Shown here piece by piece: positions 8,940-24,608 of a DNA stretch of 64,000 bases. Source of the DNA: Gemmatimonadota bacterium (GTDB lineage Bacteria; Gemmatimonadota; Gemmatimonadetes; Gemmatimonadales; GWC2-71-9); NCBI GenBank assembly GCA_039591075.1, contig JBDHEI010000004.1:29537-93536 (forward strand), in the 5' to 3' direction. Each line of letters opens with the position of its first letter. Position 1 is the stretch's first letter. A model generated the notes under the pieces. It saw nothing but the letters and a program-made list of their open reading frames with translations, had not been told where the DNA came from and did no database searches. Position numbers and translations under genes: made by a program.

Positions 8940-8997
<58 letters not shown>

Positions 8998-9011
<14 letters not shown>

Positions 9012-9146
9012 CTCACCAGGCTCGGATATGCGAGCCCGTTCTGCGTCGGCGCCGCGCCGCTTCGGTCCACGGCGCTCGTCTATCGACTCGCGCCTTAGGA
9101 TCAACTCTGCCCGGCGCCTCTCACCAGGCTCGCATGTGCGAGCCCG
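8998..9146 (+). repeat. 41-nt direct repeat pair duplicating the tRNA-Cys 3' end plus a downstream hairpin
   Basis: 8998-9038 reads tctgcccggcgcctctcaccaggctcgGatAtgcgagcccg and 9106-9146 reads tctgcccggcgcctctcaccaggctcgCatGtgcgagcccg, 39/41 identical. The 67-nt filler begins with an acceptor-like ggcgccg at 9049. Confidence 0.85.
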
Positions 9147-11894: not shown

Positions 11895-11933
11895 TTGACC
11901 AGATCTCTGTAACAAGTATCTTATCACCAAGAT
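11895..11933 (+). promoter_or_regulatory. Putative sigma70-type promoter and operator for the MarR-fusion gene; would give a leaderless or near-leaderless mRNA
   Basis: TTGACC at 11895-11900, a 16-nt spacer, then TATCTT at 11917-11922; the ATG is at 11932. An inverted repeat ATCTT-N6-AAGAT (11918-11933) overlaps the -10 and the start codon. Confidence 0.4.
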
Positions 11934-13965
11934 GAATAGCACTGAGGGGTCTGGCCGTCCTGGACCCACCCCAAGTGCGAACTCGGCCACGGAGTTCTGG
12001 GAGGTTTTGGCCCGGGCCCATGCCCTGGTTGAGGCCCGGGTGGCCGAGCATGCGAGCCGGCATGACCTGACACTTGCTGAGTTCGGTGCGCTCGAGGCGC
12101 TCAGCCGACAGGGCCCGATGTTGCTCGGCGAGCTCCAGCGCCACGTCCTGGTCTCGAGCGGCGGCATGACCTATCTGGTCGATCGGCTCGAGTCGAGGGG
12201 ACTGGTGACTCGGCAGCCGAGTCCCACCGATCGCCGGGCGCGGTTCGCGGTGCTGACCGAAGACGGGCAGCGCCTGATAGACCGGATTGCCCCGGAACAT
12301 GTCCGCGCCGTCGCCGACGCGGTCGGTGGTATGAGCGCCGCAGAGCAACGGCAGGCAAGCACGCTGCTGCGGGCACTGGGTCTGGGCGTGGCAGAACCTG
12401 AGCGAGCCGCCGCCGCTCCAGCCGCGGTACTGCCGGCGGAGCCTGTGGTGTTGACCCGACCGGCACCGGTGGCCGCACGCATCGAGCCCCCGCAACCCGC
12501 TCCACCGGAGGTCGCCCAGCCGGCCCCGGTCGAAGTCCCCCAGGAGCCCGAACCGGAAGAGCCGACCCGACCCGAGCCGGAGGAAGTTGCCGCGGGGGGG
12601 CCGGCACCGGCGTTGGCTCCGGAGGACGTGGAGTGGGTCGAGGCAAGCGAGCCTGTGCCGGACGAGGAGCCAGCGCTCTTGATCGGGCCGGAGACCACCA
12701 TCCTCGTTATCGACGACGACCGCAGCACCCGGAGGGTGGCCAAGTCGGCCCTGGCGGGCCCGGGCCGCGAGATCATTGCCGTCGATTCGGCGGCCGAGGC
12801 GGAGCGGGCGCTGGCGCGACACGACGTGGCGCTGGTCGTTCTGTCACTCGTGCTCCCGGACGCCGACGGCCGAGCTGTATACACCCGGCTCAGCCGCCAG
12901 CGGACCACCGCGGCCATTCCCGTGATCATGGTGGCCTCCAAGGTGGGCGAGCGGGCAAGGGTGGAGTGTCTCGGGCTTGGTGTTGCCGAGTGGTTCGAGA
13001 AACCGATCGACGGCGGGGCGCTGGCACAGGCGGCCGATGCATTGCTCGAAGGCGGCTTGGTCCCGATCGCGTCGTCGGCGGATCCGGTGACCGCGGCCCT
13101 GAATCGCGCCGCGTTCGCCGAAGCGTACGAGCGCGAGGTCACCGCCCGGACGGACGATCCGACACCCACCGCACTCGCACTGCTCGATTTGGACGCCATT
13201 TCCGCGGTGAATCGTGAGCACGGCCGAGACATTGGTGACCGCGTGCTGCGTCAAATACGCGAGCTCCTGTCAGGCGTCCTCCGTGATACTGACGTCGTTG
13301 CCCGCTGGCGTGACGATGAGTTCGTGGTGCTCTTCCCGCAGTCGGATCCGGCGACCGCGACGCGCCTGCTCACCAGGACACAGGCCCTGCTCACCACGTC
13401 GCCGCCTACCGCACCGGACGGGACCGAGATCCCGATCACGTTCTCCGCGGGGATTGCCACGGCCAGCCCGCTTACCTCGATGGAAGAGGCCGTGGCCACC
13501 GCCGATCGCGCGCTGAGCCGGGCCAAGAGTGGAGGGCCGTCCCGCGTCGTGTCCGTCGAAGACGAGTCCACCGAGGCCCCGACCACCGTGCTCGTTGCCG
13601 AAGACGATCGGGTCACGGCGACCCTCGTGCGGCATCGGCTCGAGCGGGCCGGGTTCGAAGTCGTACACTGTGAGTCCGGTACTCTGGCGCTCGAGGCGGC
13701 GGAACAAGTGGCGTTCGGTCTCTGCATTTCGGACATCCGGATGCCCGGACTCGACGGCTTCGAGCTGGTGAAGCGCCTGCGGGCGTTGCCGCAGTACGAG
13801 GCCGTGCCGATCCTGATGCTGACGAGCCTTGGCCGCGAGGAGGACATTGTGCGTGCGTTCAGCCTCGGCGCCAGCGATTACATGACCAAACCGTTTTCGC
13901 CCGTGGAGCTTCTCGCCCGGGTGCAGCGTTTGCTGCGCCGCCGAGTCTCCTCGTCGCCGGCATGA
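11932..13965 (+). CDS. MarR-type wHTH / Pro-Ala linker / pseudo-receiver / degenerate GGDEF (RDDEF, I-site RxxD intact) / canonical receiver fusion protein
   Basis: MarR sequence LTLAEFGALEALSRQGPMLLGELQRHVLVSSGGMTYLVDRLESRGLVTRQPSPTDRRA. REC1 is ILVIDDD...LVVLSLVLPDADG, with Ser at the phospho-Asp position. The GGDEF fold shows LNRAAF, LLDLDAISAVNREHGRDIGD, RDTDVVARWRDDEFVV and ADRALSRAKSGG. REC2 is VLVAEDD...ISDIRMPGLDG...YMTKPF. Confidence 0.85.
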   Translation: MNSTEGSGRPGPTPSANSATEFWEVLARAHALVEARVAEHASRHDLTLAEFGALEALSRQGPMLLGELQRHVLVSSGGMTYLVDRLESRGLVTRQPSPTDRRARFAVLTEDGQRLIDRIAPEHVRAVADAVGGMSAAEQRQASTLLRALGLGVAEPERAAAAPAAVLPAEPVVLTRPAPVAARIEPPQPAPPEVAQPAPVEVPQEPEPEEPTRPEPEEVAAGGPAPALAPEDVEWVEASEPVPDEEPALLIGPETTILVIDDDRSTRRVAKSALAGPGREIIAVDSAAEAERALARHDVALVVLSLVLPDADGRAVYTRLSRQRTTAAIPVIMVASKVGERARVECLGLGVAEWFEKPIDGGALAQAADALLEGGLVPIASSADPVTAALNRAAFAEAYEREVTARTDDPTPTALALLDLDAISAVNREHGRDIGDRVLRQIRELLSGVLRDTDVVARWRDDEFVVLFPQSDPATATRLLTRTQALLTTSPPTAPDGTEIPITFSAGIATASPLTSMEEAVATADRALSRAKSGGPSRVVSVEDESTEAPTTVLVAEDDRVTATLVRHRLERAGFEVVHCESGTLALEAAEQVAFGLCISDIRMPGLDGFELVKRLRALPQYEAVPILMLTSLGREEDIVRAFSLGASDYMTKPFSPVELLARVQRLLRRRVSSSPA

Positions 13966-13981
13966 CCGAGCGCATCTGACC

Positions 13982-15040
13982 ATGCCCCTGAACTTCGGCC
14001 TCGGTGAGCAGCTCCTGCTCTTTCTCGCAATCGGCATCGGGATCCTGATGCTGTTCGCGCTGGGTTTTGCTGGTTCGGTGGTGCTGCTCCGCCTGCACCA
14101 TCAACGTCGCGCCGAAAAGTGGAGCGTGCTGGAAGCCAAGTGGGAAGATGCGATTCTCGAGATGCTGGCCGAGGACCGCGATCCATCGACGGTTCACGCG
14201 CTCGTGGCGGAGGGCGACGAACTGTTCTGCGTGAGCTACATCATGCGCTACGCCAGCAGGCTGTCCGGTCCTGAGCGCGAGCGGCTGCAGGAGCTTGCCC
14301 GGCCGTACCTGCCGCTGGTCGTGCCGCGCGCACAGCATCGGGACGCGCGACGACGGGCACGCGCCGTGCGGACGTTGGGTACGCTGGGGCTTCCCGAATA
14401 TGGCGACATCGTCGCCGCCGCCCTCGGTGATGATTCGCCGTTGGTTTCCATGGTGGCCGCCCGGGCGTTGGCACGGGGTAAGGATCCCGACTACGTCGTA
14501 CCGGTGCTCGACCACCTCGATCGATTCACAGCATGGAGCCCGAACTTCCTGGCATCGATGCTCGCGAGCATTGGCCCCGGCGCGACGCCCGCGCTACGGG
14601 TGGTGTTCGCGGACGCCAAGCGCCCGCCCGAGGTGCGCGCCGTCGCGGCCACGGCCCTCGGTTACCTCAACGATCTCGCTGGTGGTGACATCGCCGTCCA
14701 GGTGCTCGCACTGGCGTCGGACCGTGAGCTGCTGGCAGCGGCGCTGCGCCTGATCGGCAGAGTGGGGCATCGGGACCATCGCTCGGCCGTGCTGCCGTTT
14801 CTCACGGCGTCTGATTTCTACGTGCGGGCCACCGCTGCGAGCGCGCTTGGCGGTGTCGGGGACAAAGAAGACCTCGAGCTTCTCCGGATCGCGTGTGAGG
14901 ACGACTCCCGGTGGGTCGCCATCCACGCTGCGCGCGCCCTGCGTGATGCGGGCGATATCAATTCGTTGCAACAGTTGGCTGCGTCGGGCGGGCCCCGCGC
15001 CACCCTGGCGTTGCAGGTGCTCTCCGAGGTGGGCGGATGA
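13982..15040 (+). CDS. Membrane-anchored HEAT-repeat protein
   Basis: N-terminal TM LLLFLAIGIGILMLFALGFAGSVVLL, followed by repeated HEAT/PBS-lyase-like units (ARAVRTLGTLGLPE, VSMVAARALAR, VRAVAATALGYL, VRATAASALGGVG, WVAIHAARALRDAG). Confidence 0.75.
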   Translation: MPLNFGLGEQLLLFLAIGIGILMLFALGFAGSVVLLRLHHQRRAEKWSVLEAKWEDAILEMLAEDRDPSTVHALVAEGDELFCVSYIMRYASRLSGPERERLQELARPYLPLVVPRAQHRDARRRARAVRTLGTLGLPEYGDIVAAALGDDSPLVSMVAARALARGKDPDYVVPVLDHLDRFTAWSPNFLASMLASIGPGATPALRVVFADAKRPPEVRAVAATALGYLNDLAGGDIAVQVLALASDRELLAAALRLIGRVGHRDHRSAVLPFLTASDFYVRATAASALGGVGDKEDLELLRIACEDDSRWVAIHAARALRDAGDINSLQQLAASGGPRATLALQVLSEVGG

Positions 15041-16542
15041 CGGGGACGGTGGGCGTCGTGCTCGTGCTGCTCGCCGCGTTCAACGGTCTCGTGCTCGTGT
15101 ATTTCGTCGTCCTGAACACGGTGTACCTCCTCACGAGCCTCATCGCGTTCCGGGACATCCGCCGCTACGTCGAGCGTCTCAAATCGCTGGACCTGGGAGA
15201 GTTGCTATCGTCGGAAGGCATTCCGCCGGTCACGATCATCGCGCCGGCATACAACGAGGAACCGACGTGTGTCGAGGCCGCACACTCCTTGCTCAGTCTC
15301 GAATACCAGCGGTTCGAGATCCTGTTCGTCAACGACGGGTCGCGGGACAACACGCTTTCGCGGATGCGGGAGGCGTTCGACCTCGTCCCCGCCGCGCGCC
15401 TGCCGACGGCGGACCTCGCCACCAAGCGGATTCGCAAGGTGTACCAGAGCAAGCGTCATCCCAATCTGTGGGTGATCGACAAGGAGAATGGTGGCAAGGC
15501 GGATGCGCTCAATGCCGGCGTGAACCTGTGTGTCACCCCGCTGTTCTGCGCCGTGGACGCCGACAGTTTGCTGGAACGCGAGGCGCTCACACGGATCGTC
15601 CGGCCGTTCCTGGAGGACCGGCGCACGATTGCCGCGGGTGGGGTGATCCGGATCGTCAACGACTGTACCGTGAGCGAGGGGAGCGTCACCGAAGTGCGAT
15701 TCCCACGGAACTGGTGGGCACGGTTCCAGGTGCTCGAGTATCTGCGCTCGTTCCTCGCCGGACGCATGGGGTGGTCGGTGCTCGATGCCACCCTGATCAT
15801 TTCGGGTGCGTTCGGCGTGTTCCGTCGGGAAACCGTGGTGGCGGCGGGCGGCTATGCGTCGCCCCAGACGTCCGGCGCGACTGTGGGGGAGGACATGGAG
15901 CTCGTGGTTCGGCTCCACCGGTACTGCCGCGAGCACAAGATCCCCTACCGGATCAGTTTTGTTCCGGACCCGGTGGCCTGGACCGAATGTCCGGAGACGC
16001 TTCGCGTGCTGGCGCGACAGCGAGACCGGTGGCAGCGCGGGATGGCCGAGAGCCTGATGCGCCACCGGCGCATGCTGTTCAACCCGCGCTATGGTAGGAT
16101 TGGGTCCCTGGCGTACCCGTACTTCCTGTTTCTGGAAACCCTGGGCCTCCTGGTGGAGATCGTGGGCTACGGCGCCTTTGTGCTGACATTGGCCCTGGGT
16201 CTCGTTTCGTACGTGCACGCCGCCGCGTTTCTGATGGCGGCGTTCGTGTTCGGGATGGTGTTGTCCATTGCGGCGGTCGGGCTCGAGGAGCTGGGCTTCC
16301 GCCGATACCCCCGGGTGTCGGATCTCTTGCGGCTCTTCGTGGTGGCCTCCGTGGAGAATTTCGGGTACCGACAGTTGATTTCCTTGTGGCGGCTGCACGG
16401 GCTGATCTCGGCACTGCGGGGCGTGCAAGGCTGGGGAGAAATGACACGAAAGGGCTTTTCGCCTTCCGGGCCACAGGGACCCGACAGCAGCGCGGCACCG
16501 CTAGACCGTTCACCGTCCACACGGAGGACAGGTGATGGCTGA
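15037..16542 (+). CDS. Processive family-2 glycosyltransferase (PgaC/IcaA/NodC/cellulose-synthase-like polysaccharide synthase)
   Basis: ATGA overlap with the HEAT gene. N-terminal TM, then [53 protein letters not shown] and the Q-x-x-RW motif RQRDRWQRG, followed by C-terminal TM helices. Confidence 0.88.
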
Positions 16543-18463
16543 CCGCCCGGCGCATAGCGCGGAGTGGGGTCTGATCTCCAAGGTGAGTCACGAGATCCGT
16601 ACCCCACTGAACGGACTAGTCGGGCTCGTGGAGCTTCTGCTCGATACCGATCTCTCCGCAGAACAGCAGCGATCCGTCGAGCTCATCCGGGTGTCGGCCG
16701 GCTCATTGCTCACACTGGTCAACGACATCCTGGACTTCACCAAACTCGAACGCGATCGGATCGAGCTGGAGGACGTCGCCTTCGACCTCGGTCAGCTCGT
16801 CGATTCCGCAGTCCAGTTGCTTCGGGTACGGGCATTCGAGCGGGGGATCGCGCTGAGTTACGAGATCGCCCCGGAGGTTCCCCGTGCCGTCCGCGGCGAC
16901 CCCAGCCGACTCCGTCAGATCCTCACCAACCTGATTGGCAACGCCATCAAGTTCACGAGTGAGGGCGGCGTCTTCGTGCTCGCCACGACACAACTCAGCC
17001 GCAGCGCTCGCACGGCGGTCCGCTTCGCGGTGCGTGATACCGGCATCGGTATCCCGCCTGACAAGCTGGAAGCGATCTTCGAGGAGTTCACACAGGCCCA
17101 AGTCAGTGTGTCGCGGAAGTACGGCGGAACGGGCCTCGGGCTCCCGATCGCCCGTAAGTTGGCACAGTTGATGGGCGGGGATCTCAAGGTGACGAGCGAG
17201 GCGGGGAAAGGAAGCGAGTTCGCATTCACGGTCTCGCTGAAGCAAATCGACGAGCGAATGCTGGAGGTGGTGTCGCCGGCCACAGTCCCACTGGACCGAC
17301 TCCGCGTACTCGTGGTGGACGGGAACCCGTCGAGCCGTGAGTTCATTCGGCAGACCCTCGGTGAGGCCGGGGTCACGGTGCGCGTGGCCCCGAGCTTGGA
17401 GGAGGGCTACACGGAACTGCATCGGGCCAGGATCGCCGGTGAGCCCATGCATTTCGCCATTCTCGACGCATGGCTGGACCGACAAGACGGCTTCGAGGTG
17501 ACCCGCCGCATCCGGAATGACCCCGACCTGTCCGAGACCCGCGTCATGATTCTCGCGGCCCGAGGCGAGCGCGGCCATGGTCAGCGTTGTCGGGAGGTGG
17601 GTGCTCAGGCCTACTTCACCAAACCGATATCCGAGAAGGAGCTGTTTGGCGCGATTCGTACGGTGATGGCGGCGAGCCTCGAGGATCTGGTCACGCGCCA
17701 CTCGATTGCCGAGAGCCGACGCCGCTTGCGCGTGCTGGTGGCAGACGACAATGAGGTGAATCGCCAGCTCGCGTCGATCGCCCTGACGAAGCGCGGTCAC
17801 CAGGTGGACCTGGTGGAGCACGGGGGACGGGCCGTCGAGGCGGCTGGGCGGAACCGGTATGACGCGATCCTCATGGATGTCGAGATGCCGGAAGTCGACG
17901 GGATCACCGCCACGGCCCAGCTCCGGAAGATCGAGTCGACGGTCGATACACCGATCATCGCGATGACCGCGCACACCGAGTTCCGCGGGTCCGACGCCTT
18001 TTACGGAAGTGGGTTCACGGCCTTTCTATCCAAGCCGTTTCGGCCCCAGGATCTGGTGCGCGTCGTGGAGGAACTGGGAACGGAGCGAGAGGCGGTGACG
18101 ACGGCATCGGCAGACCAGACCGCACCCGTCGAGCTACACGAGTTCCGACGGGTGATGCGCGAGGCTGGCATCGAGGACACGGCCGACAGCATCCTCGGTG
18201 TGTTCCTCGCCGATGCACCGGGACGGATGCGCGAGCTCGAAGAGGCCGTCGGGACCGGAAATGCGGTGGCGATCCGGGCGGCGGCGCACGCTTATCGATC
18301 GGCGGCCGCGACGGTGCGAGCCGAGAGCCTTGCCGCGTTATTGAGTCACGTGGAATCGGCTGCGACGACCGCGAACCTGGATCACGTGAACGAGGTGCTG
18401 CCCCAGTTGCGCGGGGAGCACGAGGCGGTGATCGCCTACCTCCGGGACGTGGATACCCGGTAA
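16532..18463 (+). CDS. Hybrid histidine kinase without a sensor domain (HisKA-HATPase-REC-REC-HPt)
   Basis: The ATG overlaps the GT2 3' end by 11 nt. The H-box [10 protein letters not shown] lies only ~20 aa from the start. Also GNAIKFT, DTGIGI and YGGTGLGL; REC Asp contexts FAILDAW and [13 protein letters not shown]; HPt [13 protein letters not shown]. Confidence 0.9.
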
Positions 18464-18494
18464 CGTCCCATCACGGGTCGTGCGAGAACCGCGG

Positions 18495-19145
18495 TCACGC
18501 CGCCGGCGTCATCCGTTCTAGGAGCGCGCGCGTCGCCTTGATCTCATCACGGTTGACGGTGTGGGCCATACCGGGATAGATCCGCACGTCGACGGTTCCG
18601 CCGAGCGCCTGGAGAGTGGATGCGCTTTCCGTGACCCGCTCGACCGGAATGTGCGGGTCCACGACGCTGCAGCCGAGCAAGACCGGCGTGTCGGCCAGGG
18701 ACCCCGCGTACAAGCGTGGCGTGCCCGGTGGACCGATGAGACCACCGCTCAGTCCCACCACCGCGCCGTATCGCCGCGCGTTGCGCGCCGCGAACTCCAG
18801 CACGAGACGCGCGCCCTGTGAGAAACCGAGGAGCACCACGCCTTCAGCCGAGATGCCGGATCGATCCACGCGATCGAGCATCGCGCCCACGGTGCCAAGG
18901 GCGAACGACAGATCGGGCTCGTTGTCGTCGAAGGGCGCCAGAAAACTGAACGGGTACCAGGAACCGCGTGGCGCCTGGGGCGCGAGAAACGCGATGCCGG
19001 GAACCGCGATGTCCCGGGCCAGGTGCAACATGTCGGCGGCCGAACCGCCCCGGCCATGCGCAAGGATCACCGTCGCACCGGCCGCGTCCAGGGGCGTGCC
19101 GAACACGCCAACGTGAACCTGACCGAGGCCTGCCGGGTCACGCAC
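18495..19145 (-). CDS. Alpha/beta hydrolase (phospholipase/carboxylesterase, dienelactone-hydrolase-like)
   Basis: Nucleophile elbow LLGFSQGA, plus ILAHGRGGSA and a C-terminal GMAHTV His motif. 216 aa. Confidence 0.8.
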   Translation of the reverse strand: MRDPAGLGQVHVGVFGTPLDAAGATVILAHGRGGSAADMLHLARDIAVPGIAFLAPQAPRGSWYPFSFLAPFDDNEPDLSFALGTVGAMLDRVDRSGISAEGVVLLGFSQGARLVLEFAARNARRYGAVVGLSGGLIGPPGTPRLYAGSLADTPVLLGCSVVDPHIPVERVTESASTLQALGGTVDVRIYPGMAHTVNRDEIKATRALLERMTPAA

Positions 19146-19196
19146 GTACCTTCCTCCTCCGCGAGCATGCTGCTTGGGGTCGCTGCAGCACGCGAG

Positions 19197-20786
19197 CTAG
19201 AAGGCCCAGCTACCGGACACCGTGACGGCCACGTAGCGGTAGCCGGCTCCGCCGGTGGAAAAGCTCTGGAGGCCCGCGTTGGAGTAGAGTGCGGAGATGC
19301 CGACCTGCCGGCCGGGGGAGAGGTCGTACGCGGTCTGTAGTGACAGCCGGATCGTGGCGTGTGGATCCCACGTCGATGTGATCTGCTCGAGCCCCGGTGC
19401 CGCTTCCCCCGTGACGTGCCATGGTCCGCGCAGCGGCCGCCAGCGGGCGATCGCCTCGGCATGCAGGTACGAGTTGGGATCGAAGTACCCATCCTGGAGA
19501 TTCTTTTCAAAACCAAAGGCGCGGACCCGCGCCGCCGCGATCCAGGAAGGTGTAAGACGACGAGTGCCGGCGACGTAGCCCGCGAGTCTCCTGTTGGCCT
19601 CGCTGCCTCGGAAGTCCGCGTACGAGAACCCGCCCTCCAACTGCCACAGACGCCAGGGTTCCGCGCGTAAGCTCGCGGCGCCTTGGGTGTACGTCACTCC
19701 ACTGTCGATCATGAGCGCCGTGGCGTCGAACGCCGAGTGGCTGAACGTGAGGGAGCCGCCAATCGGGTTTCGCGCAGGGCTCGCGATGCTTGCGTGCACC
19801 GCCGGTTCGGTCACCGCGGCCGCGCCGTTCGATCCGGAAGCACCGACGCCGAGCCCGACGGTCCAGCCAGGCTCGGCGAGATACCGCCCCGTCGCCACGA
19901 GCCCCCACGCCTGGCGGTCCACGGTGGGCTCGTTCCAGGCCGCGTGCCGGTAGTAGCTGTCGAACCCCATCTGGAATCGTGGCACGACGGGATACGTGCC
20001 GCGGAGGACGACGGTCGCGATGCGTTGTTCGTCTGAGTCGGCCTCGTAGGTGAACGCCGGGCGAACCCAGGGTCCGATCGCCGCGGCGATCGAGCGACGC
20101 TCCTCGCCGTAGTCGCGCGTCCCGCGTCTGTCGGGCGGAATGCGCTGCAAGGTCTCGAGCGCCGCGGCGGGTCGCCCCTGCCAGCGAAGCGTTTGCGACA
20201 GCCCGATGAGGGTGGTGGGATCCCCCTCAGCCATGGCATCCACCGCGCGCCATCGTTCCTCGGCCCCGAGGAGATCACCCTGCCAGGCGGTGATGCGGGC
20301 TATTCCCTGGAGAGCCTCGATGTCGGCGGCGTTGGAGGCGATGAGGTCCGCGTAGATGGCGCGGGCCGAATCGAGATCGTCGAGCCACGCCGTCGTCTGC
20401 GCGAGCCCGAGCCGCACCGAGCGGTTGCCCGGCGACCGACGCAGCATCGCCTCGTAGGAGGCCACGGACTCACGGAGCCGTCCTGCCCAGGCCAGGACCC
20501 TGGCGCGGTCGATCTGGGCTTCGATGTGTTGCGGGTTGAGCGCAAGGATGCGGTCGAACAGGGCCAGGCTCGCGGCGTAGTCACCGTCCCACGCTACCAT
20601 CAGCGCCATCCGATGGAGCGCCAGCGCGTCGGTGGAATCGGTGGCGAGCCGTTCGGCGTAGAGTTGCCGAGCCGTATCGATGTCGCCGCTGGTCCAGGCC
20701 ACGTCGGCGGGGTGCTGCGCCCACCCGGTGGTCGTGACCGAGGCAAGCAGGATTGCAGCCAAGGACGCGAGCCGGAGCAGTCTCAT
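19197..20786 (-). CDS. TPR-repeat plus C-terminal beta-barrel outer-membrane protein (PgaA/BcsC/PelB-like export porin)
   Basis: The ATG at 20786 overlaps the upstream stop (ATGA). Signal MRLLRLASLAAILLASVTTTGWAQ. About 270 aa of TPR with a recurring AW.G motif, then alternating beta-strand sequence ending YVAVTVSGSWAF (terminal Phe). Confidence 0.75.
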   Translation of the reverse strand: MRLLRLASLAAILLASVTTTGWAQHPADVAWTSGDIDTARQLYAERLATDSTDALALHRMALMVAWDGDYAASLALFDRILALNPQHIEAQIDRARVLAWAGRLRESVASYEAMLRRSPGNRSVRLGLAQTTAWLDDLDSARAIYADLIASNAADIEALQGIARITAWQGDLLGAEERWRAVDAMAEGDPTTLIGLSQTLRWQGRPAAALETLQRIPPDRRGTRDYGEERRSIAAAIGPWVRPAFTYEADSDEQRIATVVLRGTYPVVPRFQMGFDSYYRHAAWNEPTVDRQAWGLVATGRYLAEPGWTVGLGVGASGSNGAAAVTEPAVHASIASPARNPIGGSLTFSHSAFDATALMIDSGVTYTQGAASLRAEPWRLWQLEGGFSYADFRGSEANRRLAGYVAGTRRLTPSWIAAARVRAFGFEKNLQDGYFDPNSYLHAEAIARWRPLRGPWHVTGEAAPGLEQITSTWDPHATIRLSLQTAYDLSPGRQVGISALYSNAGLQSFSTGGAGYRYVAVTVSGSWAF

Positions 20787-23362
20787 CGTCCCGCCACGCG
20801 CTCGTCGAGTCGGGAGAACACTCGCTGCATCGCATCGAACACGGGCCGGCGTCGCGCCCGCCAGCGCGGCTCGTCCCACGGCTCCCAGCGGAACTGGGCA
20901 ACCGGTGCGCGGCCGACGGGCCACTGCTGCCACGACCCGTCGGCGAAGCGGGCGGCGGCGACCATCCCGATCGACTCTATCTGTCGCGGGACGAACCCGT
21001 CGGCCGTGTCCGCAGTGCTCGAGAGCACCTGCAAGCTGCTTGGATCGACGACGTTGATGAGTGTCCATGGAATCCGGATCTCCATGATCCCCGATGCGGA
21101 ATCTACCTCCCAGAAGCCGTCAGGCGCCGCCCCGGCCGGCAAGACACTCCGGTCGTAGCCCACGGCGGCGTATTCGGTCCGGTCGCGAGCGAACCGACGC
21201 CGGTTGATGATGACCCGCAGCGAATCGTACCGCGTGTCGTCACGGCGCTTGGTCCGGAGCGGCAGGTTGTAGTGCTGCAGGTACGGCCCGACGAACATTC
21301 CCGGCGGCGGGCTCGTGACCGGCGGCACGGTCACCGGCTCCTTGAGCACCGGTACCCGCTCGATCTGGAACGGGTTGGCGTTGGGGTCGGCGAGCACCCG
21401 TACCTCGTTCGGCGTCGCCACGATGGCGAACTCCACACCGATGGGCAAGCGTACGTCGGCCTTTCCGGGCCAACGAGTGGTTCCGGCCTTGCGGTCGACG
21501 ACATCCAGTCCCACGAGGAGCGTGTCCGGCAGCCCGCGCCCGCCCGGATCGAAGCAAAGGTGGAGATACGTCTCGTCGGCGAGGGCGCGAAGCGCCTCCC
21601 CGTACAGGCCCGGCACAGTCTGCCACCGGGGGAGTCGGTCGGCGAGCGTCGATCCATCCAGGCGCGGCACGGGCTCGATGGCGATCACGCCGTACTGCTG
21701 CTCCGCGTTCAGGCGGCTCAGCCAGAAGCGGGCGCGGTCGCGCGGCAACTCGAGATCGATCACCACCCAGTTCTTCTTGAACCACTCGTCGATCCACGCG
21801 AAGAGCATACCACCAGCCATACCCACCTCGTGGATCAGAGCGGTTGACTCCGCGTCGATCCGCGCCTTCTCGGCCTCGGTATGGCCGCCGTGGTGCCAAC
21901 CGGTGTCGGAGAGGTGGGCCAAGCCCAAGCTCGCAGGGACGCCGTACTCGGCGATCACGACCGGCATGTCCCGGTGGTGCTGCTTCAGTCGTCTGAGGTA
22001 CCGGGCGTATCCGCCGCCCACCACGATGAAGTCGGGGTAGTAGGGATAGGCGTGATAGGACGCGAACACGCCGGCGCGGAACGCCTCGGTCGCCCGCATG
22101 AGGTTCGGGTCGATGGCGACGAGGTCATTGTCGTACTCCTGAGGTACGTACGTGGTGTCCCCGCCAAGCGATTTGCGAATCGCGAGCTCTTCGGCGACGG
22201 TGGTCTCGGTTGGGTGGGTCAACGGGTCGAGTGTGGGCCAGCTCGTGTAGGCCACCGGTCGCTGGTGCCGGTACGTCTCGCTCTCGTAAGCAATGATCCG
22301 CTCGGAGATCTGCGTGAGCCACACGTCCATGGCCGTCCCGCCCTCGATCGCGAGGTACGCGCCGTGCCACGAGGAGCGGTTCGGATGGTTGAGATTGAAG
22401 GTGTCGACCGCGAACGGCTCCCACTCCCGGCCTAGGATGTAGGCCAGTGTCCATCGGGATACGTCGGCGGTATAGAATCCAGACGTGTGTCCGGGTCGGG
22501 GAGCGATGTCCGCACGGCCATGGATCAGATCCACAACGTACTGCATCTCGTCCGAGAACTGCTCGTTCCAGGCCGGGTCGTCAAAATCGTGATCCGGGGG
22601 TAACTCCGCCCACACGCCGTGCACCAACCACAGTGGTCGGTCGGTATGCGTCCGGTTGTGCTCCGCGAGCGCCTCATAGAAGTGCGGTGGGTGAATCGTA
22701 TAGACCCGAATCGTGTTGGCTCCCATCTCGGCGATCTCGGCGATCCAGCCCGCGTAGGTCAGCGAATCCGGAAACTGGCTCGGGAATCGGCCCGGCAGCG
22801 CGGCGCCAAGGTTCACGCCCTTGATGTAGAACGGTCGCCATCGGCCGCGGGCGGCCACCTCAAACCTGTCCCCGCAAGTCCGTGACGCCAGCACGAGGGT
22901 GTTGGGTACCTCGAGCGGGGCCCGGACGGGTGGTGTGCCCAGTCGATCGAGTTGCTCGCGCGCTTCGGCGTGATCGGGTGCGAGGGCGAGCACCTGGGTG
23001 AAGAGCCGGCGGGCCTCCCGCCCGTTTCCTCTCCGGGAGGCGACCAGCCCGATCCCTTGGAGCGCGTCTACGGTCTGTGGCGCGTGTTGCAGCGCGCGTT
23101 CGAACTGCCGGCGGGCCTCGACGAGCCGATTCCCTCGCAGATACCCGTATCCGGCACCGACGGTAGCACCGAGGTGCGCGGGGCAGCGCCGTAAAGCCTC
23201 TTCGAAGACTTCCGTGGCGTCGTCAATACGGTCGTTACGGTACAGCTTCCAGCCACGCGCGACCCTGGTGTCCGCTGCCAGCGGACAGGGTGTGTCGTCC
23301 TGAGAGGAGCAGGCAGCGGCAACGAGGAACACGGCGAAGGCCGTGGAGCGTAGGGCATTCAT
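20783..23362 (-). CDS. Lipoprotein with N-terminal TPR domain and a large TIM-barrel glycoside-hydrolase-like domain
   Basis: Signal/lipobox MNALRSTAFAVFLVAAACSS; an alternative ATG lies at 23380. TPR block in residues ~30-190. GH-A-clan-like strands FYIKGVNLG, GANTIRVYTIHPP, WLVHGVW, VVIAEYGVPAS and FAWIDEWFKKNW. The GH family is not assigned. Confidence 0.7.
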   Translation of the reverse strand: MNALRSTAFAVFLVAAACSSQDDTPCPLAADTRVARGWKLYRNDRIDDATEVFEEALRRCPAHLGATVGAGYGYLRGNRLVEARRQFERALQHAPQTVDALQGIGLVASRRGNGREARRLFTQVLALAPDHAEAREQLDRLGTPPVRAPLEVPNTLVLASRTCGDRFEVAARGRWRPFYIKGVNLGAALPGRFPSQFPDSLTYAGWIAEIAEMGANTIRVYTIHPPHFYEALAEHNRTHTDRPLWLVHGVWAELPPDHDFDDPAWNEQFSDEMQYVVDLIHGRADIAPRPGHTSGFYTADVSRWTLAYILGREWEPFAVDTFNLNHPNRSSWHGAYLAIEGGTAMDVWLTQISERIIAYESETYRHQRPVAYTSWPTLDPLTHPTETTVAEELAIRKSLGGDTTYVPQEYDNDLVAIDPNLMRATEAFRAGVFASYHAYPYYPDFIVVGGGYARYLRRLKQHHRDMPVVIAEYGVPASLGLAHLSDTGWHHGGHTEAEKARIDAESTALIHEVGMAGGMLFAWIDEWFKKNWVVIDLELPRDRARFWLSRLNAEQQYGVIAIEPVPRLDGSTLADRLPRWQTVPGLYGEALRALADETYLHLCFDPGGRGLPDTLLVGLDVVDRKAGTTRWPGKADVRLPIGVEFAIVATPNEVRVLADPNANPFQIERVPVLKEPVTVPPVTSPPPGMFVGPYLQHYNLPLRTKRRDDTRYDSLRVIINRRRFARDRTEYAAVGYDRSVLPAGAAPDGFWEVDSASGIMEIRIPWTLINVVDPSSLQVLSSTADTADGFVPRQIESIGMVAAARFADGSWQQWPVGRAPVAQFRWEPWDEPRWRARRRPVFDAMQRVFSRLDERVAGR

Positions 23363-23504
23363 CGGGAAGTGCCGAAGCATAGACGTGGGTCCGGTGCTGG
23401 GCAATCACCGGCTTGCCCTCCGCCGAGTCTGGCCGTTAGCGTATGGGTTGACGGACGACGCGAGCGCTTGCGCCGCCGCCTTCCCCCCGAGCGCGGAGCA
23501 CTTG

Positions 23505-24608
23505 GTGAATGAACTATCTATCGCCACGCAGCGGATTCGTCGCGGTATCGCGGATTCGCGGAGGTGCATCCGGACACTTGCCGTGGCACTCCTCGTTCCG
23601 GGAGTGGCCATGTGTCAGAGTTCGAGCATGACCGACCGTGGCCTGACCGCAGTCGACGGCGTTCTGGTGGGTCACGTGACCCTGACCGAGCGCCCCACGG
23701 GTTGTACGGTCGTCCTGCTTCCACCGGGCACCGTGGGAGGAGTGGATGTCCGGGGCGGTGCGCCCGGGACGCGCGAGACCGATCTCCTCGATCCGGTCAA
23801 TACCGTCGATGTGGTCCACGCGGTCGTCCTTTCGGGTGGGAGCGCCTTCGGACTCGACGCCGCCTCGGGTGTGGTCCGGTATCTGGAGGAGCAGGGCATA
23901 GGATTCGAGACAGCGGTTGCGCGTGTGCCCATTGTGGTCCAAGCCATCCTCTACGACCTGGCCGTGGGCGACGATCCCGCGGTGCGTCCGGATGCCGAGT
24001 GCGGATACCGTGGGGCGAGTGCGGCAACCGGCGCACCAGTCGGTGAGGGGAGCGTGGGCGCTGGAGCCGGAGCGACCGTCGGTAAGATCCGGGGCCTCGG
24101 CCGCGCTATGCGAGGTGGAGTCGGTTCGGCGTCCGTCACGCTTTCCAACGGACTCACGGTGAGTGCGATCGTCGCGGTCAACGCGCTGGGTGACGTGATC
24201 GACCCAGCTACCGGTCGCGTCGTGGCGGGGGTGCGGGCCGAAAATGGATCGACGCTTGCCGACGCCCGGCGCCTGCTGCGTGAGACTGGCCAGGCACTGC
24301 CGGGGCCGGGCCAGAATACGACCATTGGTGTCGTGGCGACCAACGCGCGACTCACCAAGGCCCAAGCGACCAAGGTGGCGCAGATGGCGCACGACGGCAT
24401 CGCGCGAACGATCTATCCGGCACACACCCCGTGGGACGGCGACGCCATCTTCGGTCTCGCCACCGGCAGCTTGGGCGGCGAGGCGGACGTTGCGACGATC
24501 GGGACGCTGGCCGCCGACGTCGTGGCGGAGGCGATCCTGCGCGCCGTTCGGGCCGCCGACGGCCTACCCGGGATTCCGGCCGTTTCCGACCTGCGCGGAG
24601 GCCGATGA
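23505..24608 (+). CDS. Peptidase family S58 (DmpA/BapA-like aminopeptidase, P1 family)
   Basis: Motifs GLTAVDGVLVGHVTL, TGCTVVL, VDVRGGAPGTRETDLL and VVLSGGSAFGLDAASGV. The start is uncertain: a GTG at 23505 gives a signal-like N-terminus, and ATGs at 23610 and 23628 are also possible. Confidence 0.8.
   Translation: MNELSIATQRIRRGIADSRRCIRTLAVALLVPGVAMCQSSSMTDRGLTAVDGVLVGHVTLTERPTGCTVVLLPPGTVGGVDVRGGAPGTRETDLLDPVNTVDVVHAVVLSGGSAFGLDAASGVVRYLEEQGIGFETAVARVPIVVQAILYDLAVGDDPAVRPDAECGYRGASAATGAPVGEGSVGAGAGATVGKIRGLGRAMRGGVGSASVTLSNGLTVSAIVAVNALGDVIDPATGRVVAGVRAENGSTLADARRLLRETGQALPGPGQNTTIGVVATNARLTKAQATKVAQMAHDGIARTIYPAHTPWDGDAIFGLATGSLGGEADVATIGTLAADVVAEAILRAVRAADGLPGIPAVSDLRGGR

Follow-up and report, generated by a model that had tools for sequence, protein, structure and literature searches.

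In a 64,000-nucleotide stretch of a Gemmatimonadota genome (contig JBDHEI010000004.1; hereafter the window, with a G+C content of 65.7%), three minus-strand open reading frames (ORFs) spanning 18495-23404 encode a secreted tetratricopeptide-repeat (TPR) protein with a glycosidase-like barrel, here called P1, an outer-membrane porin, P2, and a carboxylesterase (Table 1). On the opposite strand, in convergent orientation, P1 and P2 are adjoined by a second set of genes, which encode a HEAT-repeat protein, a processive glycosyltransferase of family 2 (GT2) and two regulators. A preliminary description of this DNA had proposed an exopolysaccharide modification and export module in which both envelope proteins carry TPRs. 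Our analysis supports that view, except that it excludes the esterase from the module and adds the synthase half, which had been overlooked. We thus consider it likely that four genes, HEAT-GT2-P1-P2, encode a synthase-dependent exopolysaccharide machine, of which P1 and P2 form the part in the periplasm and outer membrane.

Table 1. Features of the window and of related loci (L numbers, with coordinates in the respective locus).
Feature	Coordinates	Strand	Description
tRNA-Cys (GCA)	8940-9012	+	Rfam/ARAGORN
MarR + linker + REC + degenerate GGDEF + REC regulator	11932..13965	+	Pfam; motif from sequence
HEAT-repeat protein	13982..15040	+	352 aa, single-pass inner membrane; HEAT_2 E 1e-22; hydrophobic segment residues 3-39
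GT2 synthase	15037..16542	+	501 aa, membrane-embedded, processive; Pfam Glyco_tranf_2_3, Glyco_trans_2_3, Chitin_synth_2
Hybrid histidine kinase	16532..18463	+	HisKA-HATPase-REC-Hpt (Pfam); cytoplasmic, without transmembrane segment; linked regulator
Abhydrolase_2 carboxylesterase	18495..19145	-	216 aa; PF02230 E 8e-21, 75.3 bits against a cut-off of 23; judged outside the system
P2	19197..20786	-	529 aa; signal peptide, ~6 TPRs (26-237) and 16-stranded β-barrel (240-528); ends SGSWAF
P1	20783..23362	-	859 aa; secreted TPR + clan-GH-A-like barrel + β-rich domain; here probably lipid-anchored
P1 signal peptide and lipobox V-A-A-A-C (Cys18)	23309..23362	-	read from sequence
P1 TPR block	22940..23287	-	residues 26-141; eight helices (DSSP), ~4 repeats; Pfam TPR_2, TPR_16, TPR_19
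P1 (β/α)8 barrel	21683..22885	-	residues ~160-560; DSSP strand order, Foldseek clan GH-A matches
P1 β-rich C-terminal region and terminal helix	20786..21682	-	residues ~560-838, helix 840-858; DSSP
P1::P2 fusion ORFs	L012:9257-14011; L013:9239-14038; L015:9233-14017; L016:2891-7438; L018:1602-6182; L020:9503-13939
HEAT::GT2 fusion	L090:4965-7979		1,004 aa; HEAT_2 residues 108-173, GT2 588-916; 39% G+C contig
L089 operon	L089:6007-15207		Big_7 protein, GT2, TPR protein, GH-like::CE4, second CE4

Three start codons are available for P1, namely a TTG at 23404 (873 aa), an ATG at 23380 (865 aa, the form in public gene calls) and an ATG at 23362 (859 aa, beginning MNALRS), and all of them retain the identical signal peptide; residue numbers here follow the 859-aa form. 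The length of 873 aa given previously corresponds to the ORF from the TTG, but it is inconsistent with a region ending at 23362, which is the ATG of the 859-aa form. The gene is real rather than a chance ORF, as over 4,326 homologues were found at E ≤ 1e-3 and the family comprises 1,426 clusters at 50% identity (again at E ≤ 1e-3), for which existing annotation reads just "TPR protein". A species scan with one genome per species found P1 relatives in at least 594 genomes, 80 of which were retained for study; nearly all of those examined belong to Gemmatimonadota. Residue conservation was scored in 80 species-level homologues with 41-82% identity to the window P1.

The lipobox reported for P1 is indeed present and presumably satisfies the permissive PROSITE-type lipoprotein rule, but it is lineage-specific and not conserved across the family: it was found in the window P1, in the homologue P0002 and in a few others, whereas most homologues have an ordinary signal peptide of the signal peptidase I type, ending in A-x-A/Q. 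The TPR block that follows was found to measure ~115 aa rather than the ~160 aa estimated before, and the Pfam TPR matches on P1 are confined to residues 35-138. Unlike the lipobox Cys18, the residues Cys26 and Cys59 in the first TPR helices (window 23185-23287), both in C-P motifs, are conserved family-wide; a disulfide between them is possible, and the conserved pair fits a periplasmic location of P1.

The AlphaFold2 model of P1, built from 54 homologues (predicted local distance difference test (pLDDT) 90.8; predicted template-modelling score (pTM) 0.85), arranges the chain as a signal peptide, eight TPR helices, a (β/α)8 barrel, a β-rich region and a helix, so that the single ~600-aa domain assumed earlier resolves into a ~400-aa barrel, a ~280-aa β-rich region and the terminal helix. 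When the model was compared with the Protein Data Bank (PDB) by Foldseek, an endo-β-1,3-glucanase of glycoside hydrolase (GH) family GH157 was the top match (E 3e-13), followed by GH2 β-glucuronidases and β-galactosidases and then by a GH5 endocellulase, with a probability of 1.0 for structures of each family; we take all three families to belong to clan GH-A in CAZy. The sequence search of the family covered Pfam, NCBIfam and PDB sequences (phmmer and a family profile). Only the TPRs were recognised: the last ~700 aa (residues ~150-859) had no sequence match in Pfam, NCBIfam or PDB, and no GH model of Pfam matched P1 at E ≤ 0.1. Judged against these three resources, P1 thus represents a probable new GH family.

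The signature positions of P1 are distributed over the barrel strands, with R219 on β2, H248 on β3, E313 and E315 after β4, H437-x-Y439 on β6, E472 at the end of β7, and W523 and W527 on β8. The strand of residues 305-310 is followed by E313 and E315 in G311-R-E313-W-E315-P, E472 in VIAEYGVP closes the strand of residues 468-473, and D525-E526-W527 lies in β8. Invariant in all 80 homologues are R219, G-R-E-W-E, H437, Y439, E472, G474 and D-E-W, while H248 (75/80) and W523 (60/80) are weaker and P316 is replaced by Ala in a single homologue. The motifs IRVYTIHPP, IAEYGVP and FAWIDEWF, on which the preliminary description had relied, were all found within invariant alignment columns. GH5-type signature residues define the canonical clan GH-A pattern, and in the model the invariant residues of P1 on the predicted strand ends reproduce this classical pattern. 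The earlier proposal of a clan-GH-A-like TIM barrel is thereby upheld, since a (β/α)8 fold was modelled and the alignment contains invariant Glu residues, as candidates for catalysis, after β4 and β7. Placed by strand order and conservation, E313 or E315 would be the acid/base and E472 the nucleophile. An hhalign comparison of the P1 profile with Escherichia coli UidA gave a single, non-significant match of 25 columns (probability 3.5%), in which VVIAEYGVP pairs with IIITEYGVD; the ITEYGV segment of UidA carries the Glu504 nucleophile. The G-R-E-W-E segment of P1 (residues 311-315; window 21938-21952) also bears a superficial likeness to the D-W-E end of the GH18 motif DxDxE, and this resemblance of R-E-W-E might be related to a 2-acetamido substrate.

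The P1 and P2 genes overlap by 4 nt, as described before, the P1 stop codon and the P2 ATG sharing ATGA. The AlphaFold2 model of P2, at pLDDT 91.4, shows exactly 16 β-strands after about six TPRs, and Foldseek matched it to BcsC (9b8a, E 3e-16), PelB (9h80_M, TM-score 0.68) and PgaA (4y25, TM-score 0.78, root-mean-square deviation 3.6), the TM-scores being normalised to the target. These results confirm that P2 combines TPRs with a C-terminal barrel ending in Phe, as in PgaA, BcsC and PelB; a soluble TPR protein, which the preliminary description had itself named as the contrary outcome, is ruled out by the 16-stranded barrel of the model. Pfam gave several TPR matches on P2 and a sub-threshold match to PF05420 (BCSC_C; 13.9 bits against a cut-off of 23.5), a family that several P2 homologues do match. 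Against the named equivalogs, P2 scored 35.6 bits for TIGR03939 (PgaA; cut-off 366.65) and 24.8 bits for NF008520 (BcsC; cut-off 858). The fold matches together with the scores below the cut-offs thus place P2 in the structural class of exopolysaccharide porins, in neither the PgaA nor the BcsC family.

In the convergent synthase half, the GT2 enzyme carries the motifs NDGS99, DAD174, GAFG257, ED285 and QRDRW328, with hydrophobic blocks at residues 1-39 and 358-421. Its best NCBIfam match is TIGR03937 (PgaC/IcaA), at 126.9 bits against a cut-off of 422.3; since the enzyme falls below this cut-off and is not an orthologue, its product cannot be called poly-N-acetylglucosamine (PNAG). The HEAT gene lies directly 5' of the GT2 gene in four other loci (L001, L003, L087 and L091) and is fused to it in L090, and we infer that the synthase has the HEAT-repeat protein as its partner subunit. 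The window HEAT protein did not match the L090 fusion in BLASTP; the HEAT repeats in the fusion were established by Pfam. The two linked regulators flank these genes. The upstream one is an unusual in-frame fusion, with a ~90-aa Pro/Ala/Glu-rich linker after the MarR part, and this arrangement is shared by L005; the protein is a candidate receptor of cyclic di-GMP (c-di-GMP) or a candidate phosphorelay element. The hybrid kinase has no recognisable sensor domain, and its gene shares 11 nt with the 3' end of the GT2 gene. In L003 the gene after P2 encodes a homologue of this kinase, and the operons of L001 and L087 have kinase genes at their flanks.

We then surveyed the gene neighbourhoods by comparing the window proteins with 84 loci by tblastn, the linkage counts being taken from the 35 loci with full flanks at a radius of 10 kb. 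In L001, L003 and L087, HEAT, GT2, P1 and P2 form one collinear operon, in the order kinase, REC, Hpt-REC-GGDEF-REC, HEAT, GT2, P1, P2 in L001 and L087, and REC, HEAT, GT2, P1, P2, hybrid kinase in L003. Besides this collinear form, the 84 loci include arrangements with P1-P2 before GGDEF-HEAT-GT2, divergent arrangements, and the convergent one of the window and L005. In 34 of the 35 full-flank loci, P1 and P2 are no more than 10 kb apart; the two thus form a tight core, to which the synthase is linked often, not always. P1 homologues with 41-44% identity also occur in metagenome-assembled genomes (MAGs) labelled as non-Gemmatimonadota, namely L029 and L074 (Candidatus Eisenbacteria), L075 (Acidobacteriota) and L083 (Holophagaceae), with HEAT and GT2 also present in L074 and L083. 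These copies could reflect horizontal transfer or mis-binning.

Natural fusions join several of these components. P1 and P2 are encoded as single ORFs of 1,478-1,599 aa, free of Ns, in six species-representative Gemmatimonadota MAGs from different studies, with a Pro/Ala/Glu-rich linker in place of the P2 signal peptide, and the product would be one TPR-glycosidase-TPR-porin polypeptide. One of these loci, L012, has no GT2 nearby; the genes 2-5 kb upstream of its P1::P2 (L012:5117-8255) encode a HEAT_2 protein of 286 aa and a TMEM260-like glycosyltransferase of the GT-C type (757 aa), which might take the place of the GT2. In L090, ODP-GGDEF-REC precedes the HEAT::GT2 fusion, then comes a 1,058-aa P1-like protein with a ~400-aa N-terminal extension, and L091 encodes HEAT, GT2 and a P1-like protein without a porin. 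Furthermore, in the relatives P0270, P0276, P0293 and P0305 a deacetylase domain of carbohydrate esterase family 4 (CE4) is attached C-terminally to the P1-like barrel and β-rich region. These distant CE4-bearing relatives are 37-41% identical to P1 and lie on contigs with 39-57% G+C, which indicates that they come from other lineages. In the L089 operon, the GT2 is 37% identical to that of the window (E 2e-102) and the GH-like part is 35% identical to P1 over residues 156-852, so that the β-rich region is conserved with the barrel even in distant relatives. The GH-like::CE4 protein of L089 presents a PgaB/PelA-like combination on a different hydrolase fold.

The locus thus has two features of synthase-dependent systems, namely a membrane-bound processive GT2 encoded with export genes and a TPR-bearing outer-membrane β-barrel porin. 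In the mechanism that we propose, the PgaC-like GT2, identified by its domains and motifs, would polymerise a β-linked glycan and thread the chain across the inner membrane, with the HEAT protein as its putative partner. Gene linkage suggests that a phosphorelay with the REC-GGDEF protein may switch the synthase. The TPR arrays of P1 and P2 would dock on each other in the periplasm and guide the chain, an idea supported by the P1::P2 fusions, and the clan-GH-A-like barrel of P1, in which fold and invariance point to Glu313 or Glu315 as acid/base and Glu472 as nucleophile, would cut or trim the polymer. P1 would thereby take the role that BcsZ, PslG, PgaB-GH153 or PelA-GH166 plays elsewhere, and the 16-stranded barrel of P2 would export the chain. 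Our best guess for the polymer, by analogy, is a β-glycan containing N-acetylhexosamine (HexNAc), because the synthases nearest to the GT2 are of the PgaC/NodC type and CE4 is found fused to distant relatives of P1.

Several observations weigh against this reading, and they bear on the polymer, its control, the chemistry of P1 and the linkage of the genes. CE4 was absent from the window and from every Gemmatimonadota locus examined, so the HexNAc assignment is indirect. The GGDEF active site of the window regulator is degenerate (RDDEF), although the RxxD I-site that lies five residues before it is intact, as in the closest relative, L005, whereas its homologues beside HEAT-GT2 in other loci (Longimicrobium-type) have a canonical GGEEF; judging from these motifs, the REC-RDDEF-REC protein may act as a receptor of c-di-GMP and not as a cyclase, and neither PilZ, nor another known receptor domain, nor a c-di-GMP-binding site was recognised on the GT2 or the HEAT protein. 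As to P1, the family profile found nothing beyond noise in the PDB at E ≤ 10, so that no solved GH is linked to it by sequence, and its TM-scores to GH structures are just 0.4-0.5, which indicates a common but not a close fold. In nearly all clan GH-A families, Asn precedes the acid/base Glu (N-E-P); P1 is without this Asn, the residue before the candidate Glu being Arg or Trp (R-E-W-E-P). This replacement of the canonical Asn-Glu and the lack of sequence kinship to any characterised GH (Pfam, PDB profile) would suit a barrel that does not hydrolyse at all, whether a non-catalytic module that binds or chaperones the polysaccharide, a role first assigned to the C-terminal domain of PgaB, or a transglycosylase acting on the polymer by remodelling or branching before it reaches P2, an activity known from some clan GH-A families (GH17, GH72). 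However, the remainder of the clan GH-A signature, including both candidate Glu residues, is invariant across 80 species, which a module for binding only would not need, and a polymer-cleaving enzyme occurs in every characterised synthase-dependent system (PMC7112194). We thus regard a non-hydrolytic P1 as unlikely.

Gene linkage bears on a further alternative, in which P1 and P2, independently of the GT2, would serve to take up and degrade glycans: the porin would import environmental polysaccharide and the TPR-anchored glycosidase would cut it. Of the 35 full-flank loci, just 14 have a window-type GT2 at most 10 kb from P1, and the other 21 have none at this distance (e.g. L040, where P1-P2 lie among housekeeping genes); the two halves are unlinked in many genomes, and the structure matching P1 best is that of a catabolic endo-β-1,3-glucanase. 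Nevertheless, the closest folds of P2 are all export porins (BcsC, PelB and PgaA), P1, P2, GT2 and HEAT recur jointly in several distinct gene orders, HEAT-GT2-P1-like triads are kept in distant lineages, and no conserved transporter or sugar-catabolism genes were found beside P1-P2, so that uptake appears very unlikely. Least probable, to the point of being barely tenable, is the original version, in which the operon has the downstream carboxylesterase as its third gene and this enzyme removes O-acyl groups from the exported polymer. The esterase gene does follow P2 on the same strand after exactly the 51 nt reported, its GFSQG motif is indeed a G-x-S-x-G elbow at residue 107, and α/β-hydrolase esterases are known to modify some exopolysaccharides; but the gene has its own ribosome-binding site (GGAGGA), and neither a signal peptide nor a transmembrane segment was found in the protein sequence, which thus appears cytoplasmic. 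Moreover, L005, an 82%-identical locus with the same layout, has no esterase, P2 and the kinase being 65 nt apart there, and an esterase homologue occurs within 10 kb of P1 in only one of the 35 full-flank loci, L003. This homologue (59% identical) belongs to a MarR-glyoxalase-esterase operon (L003:17210-19333), a layout that resembles the mhq quinone-detoxification genes of Bacillus. The esterase is an unrelated cytoplasmic bystander, and the role of polymer de-O-acylase suggested for it does not hold.

The MarR part of the window regulator (11932-12400) is 59% identical to the stand-alone MarR of L003, and in the window the esterase and MarR flank the exopolysaccharide genes on opposite sides, with no glyoxalase among the nearby genes scanned. 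This comparison of sequences suggests a lineage-specific rearrangement that scattered a MarR-glyoxalase-esterase operon around the exopolysaccharide genes. A promoter and terminator scan of 18300-23700 gave counts not above those of shuffled sequence, and a search of the 64-kb window with Rfam and ARAGORN found no riboswitch, the tRNA-Cys of Table 1 being the sole match.

The open-access full texts searched contained no account of a HEAT-GT2-P1-P2 system, of a HEAT-repeat synthase partner or of synthase-dependent exopolysaccharides in Gemmatimonadota. It is quite possible, although we put this forward only tentatively, that the genes represent a distinct, undescribed synthase-dependent class, HEAT-GT2-(GH-like)-porin, near-universal in Gemmatimonadota and with variants in other phyla, whose hydrolase, with R-E-W-E-P as its acid/base motif, would found a new family in clan GH-A, whose HEAT protein would be a new synthase co-factor or signal receiver, and whose polymer would be none of cellulose, PNAG, Pel and alginate. 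Gemmatimonadota are among the most abundant soil phyla, with few cultured members and uncharacterised surface polymers, and a conserved, regulator-linked exopolysaccharide machine is a candidate basis of their drying tolerance and of soil aggregation. With its 1,426 clusters, the ~700-aa part of P1 is a promising candidate for a new CAZy family, and it could possibly serve as a biofilm-degrading enzyme. A HEAT-repeat partner, if true, would be a new type of synthase co-subunit, and the P1::P2, HEAT::GT2 and GH::CE4 fusions yield testable contact hypotheses for synthase-dependent secretion.

Among the known systems, that for PNAG (PgaABCD of E. coli, HmsHFRS) shares with the present one a PgaC-type GT2, a small membrane partner, a porin with TPRs and 16 strands (PgaA) and a periplasmic protein with a glycosidase-like barrel. 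It differs in that the partner here is a 352-aa HEAT-repeat protein, not PgaD, in that P1 has its own TPRs, and in that neither equivalog cut-off is approached, the GT2 reaching 127 of the 422 bits set for PgaC and P2 reaching 36 of the 367 bits set for PgaA. The preliminary description had spoken of a split PgaA/PgaB-like module; P1 is PgaB-like in role, but not beyond it, as neither CE4 (PF01522) nor another deacetylase domain nor a GH153 match was found in it by Pfam. The cellulose system (BcsA/B/Z/C) provides the best structural match of P2, BcsC, and has a periplasmic endoglycanase as an obligatory partner, the place that P1 would take here; however, the present system has neither a PilZ domain nor BcsB, and BcsZ is a GH8 enzyme with an (α/α)6 fold, whereas P1 is a (β/α)8 barrel. 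BcsC has ~19 TPRs, compared with about six in P2.

PslG (GH39) of the Pseudomonas Psl system is an operon-encoded clan GH-A (β/α)8 barrel with a β-sandwich that trims the nascent polymer, and P1 is similar in combining an exopolysaccharide-linked clan GH-A-type barrel with a β domain. In contrast to P1, PslG lacks TPRs, has a transmembrane helix as its anchor, serves a Wzx/Wzy-type pathway and falls into a recognised CAZy family, GH39, to which P1 has no match. GH157 of Labilibaculum antarcticum (PDB 9g5g/9g4n) likewise has a (β/α)8 barrel and a C-terminal β domain; it is, however, a catabolic enzyme without TPRs, only 10% identical to P1 and missed by the P1 profile at E ≤ 10, and its substrate specificity is not transferable.

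In the Pel and alginate systems (PelA/PelB and AlgK/AlgX/AlgL/AlgE), as proposed here, TPR scaffolds bring periplasmic polymer-modifying enzymes to a β-barrel porin, and PelA, with its hydrolase and deacetylase, is comparable to the P1-like::CE4 relatives. The synthases there are different (the GT4 enzyme PelF, and Alg8/Alg44), as are the enzyme folds (GH166, PL5 and SGNH), and there is no direct fusion of TPR and hydrolase. The earlier statement that known systems have TPRs only on the porin needs a qualifier, since a hydrolase-porin fusion, BcsZ::BcsC, has been described in Zymomonas (PMC7112194), which parallels the P1::P2 fusions, and since AlgK is a TPR lipoprotein apart from the porin (PMC9734138). 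The survey in PMC7112194 does not mention Gemmatimonadetes. The present system would function like those for PNAG, cellulose and Pel secretion and yet fails the equivalog tests for PgaA, PgaB, PgaC and BcsC, and it contains two components unreported for them, a putative HEAT-repeat partner and a TPR-fused GH-A-like enzyme not assigned to a family.

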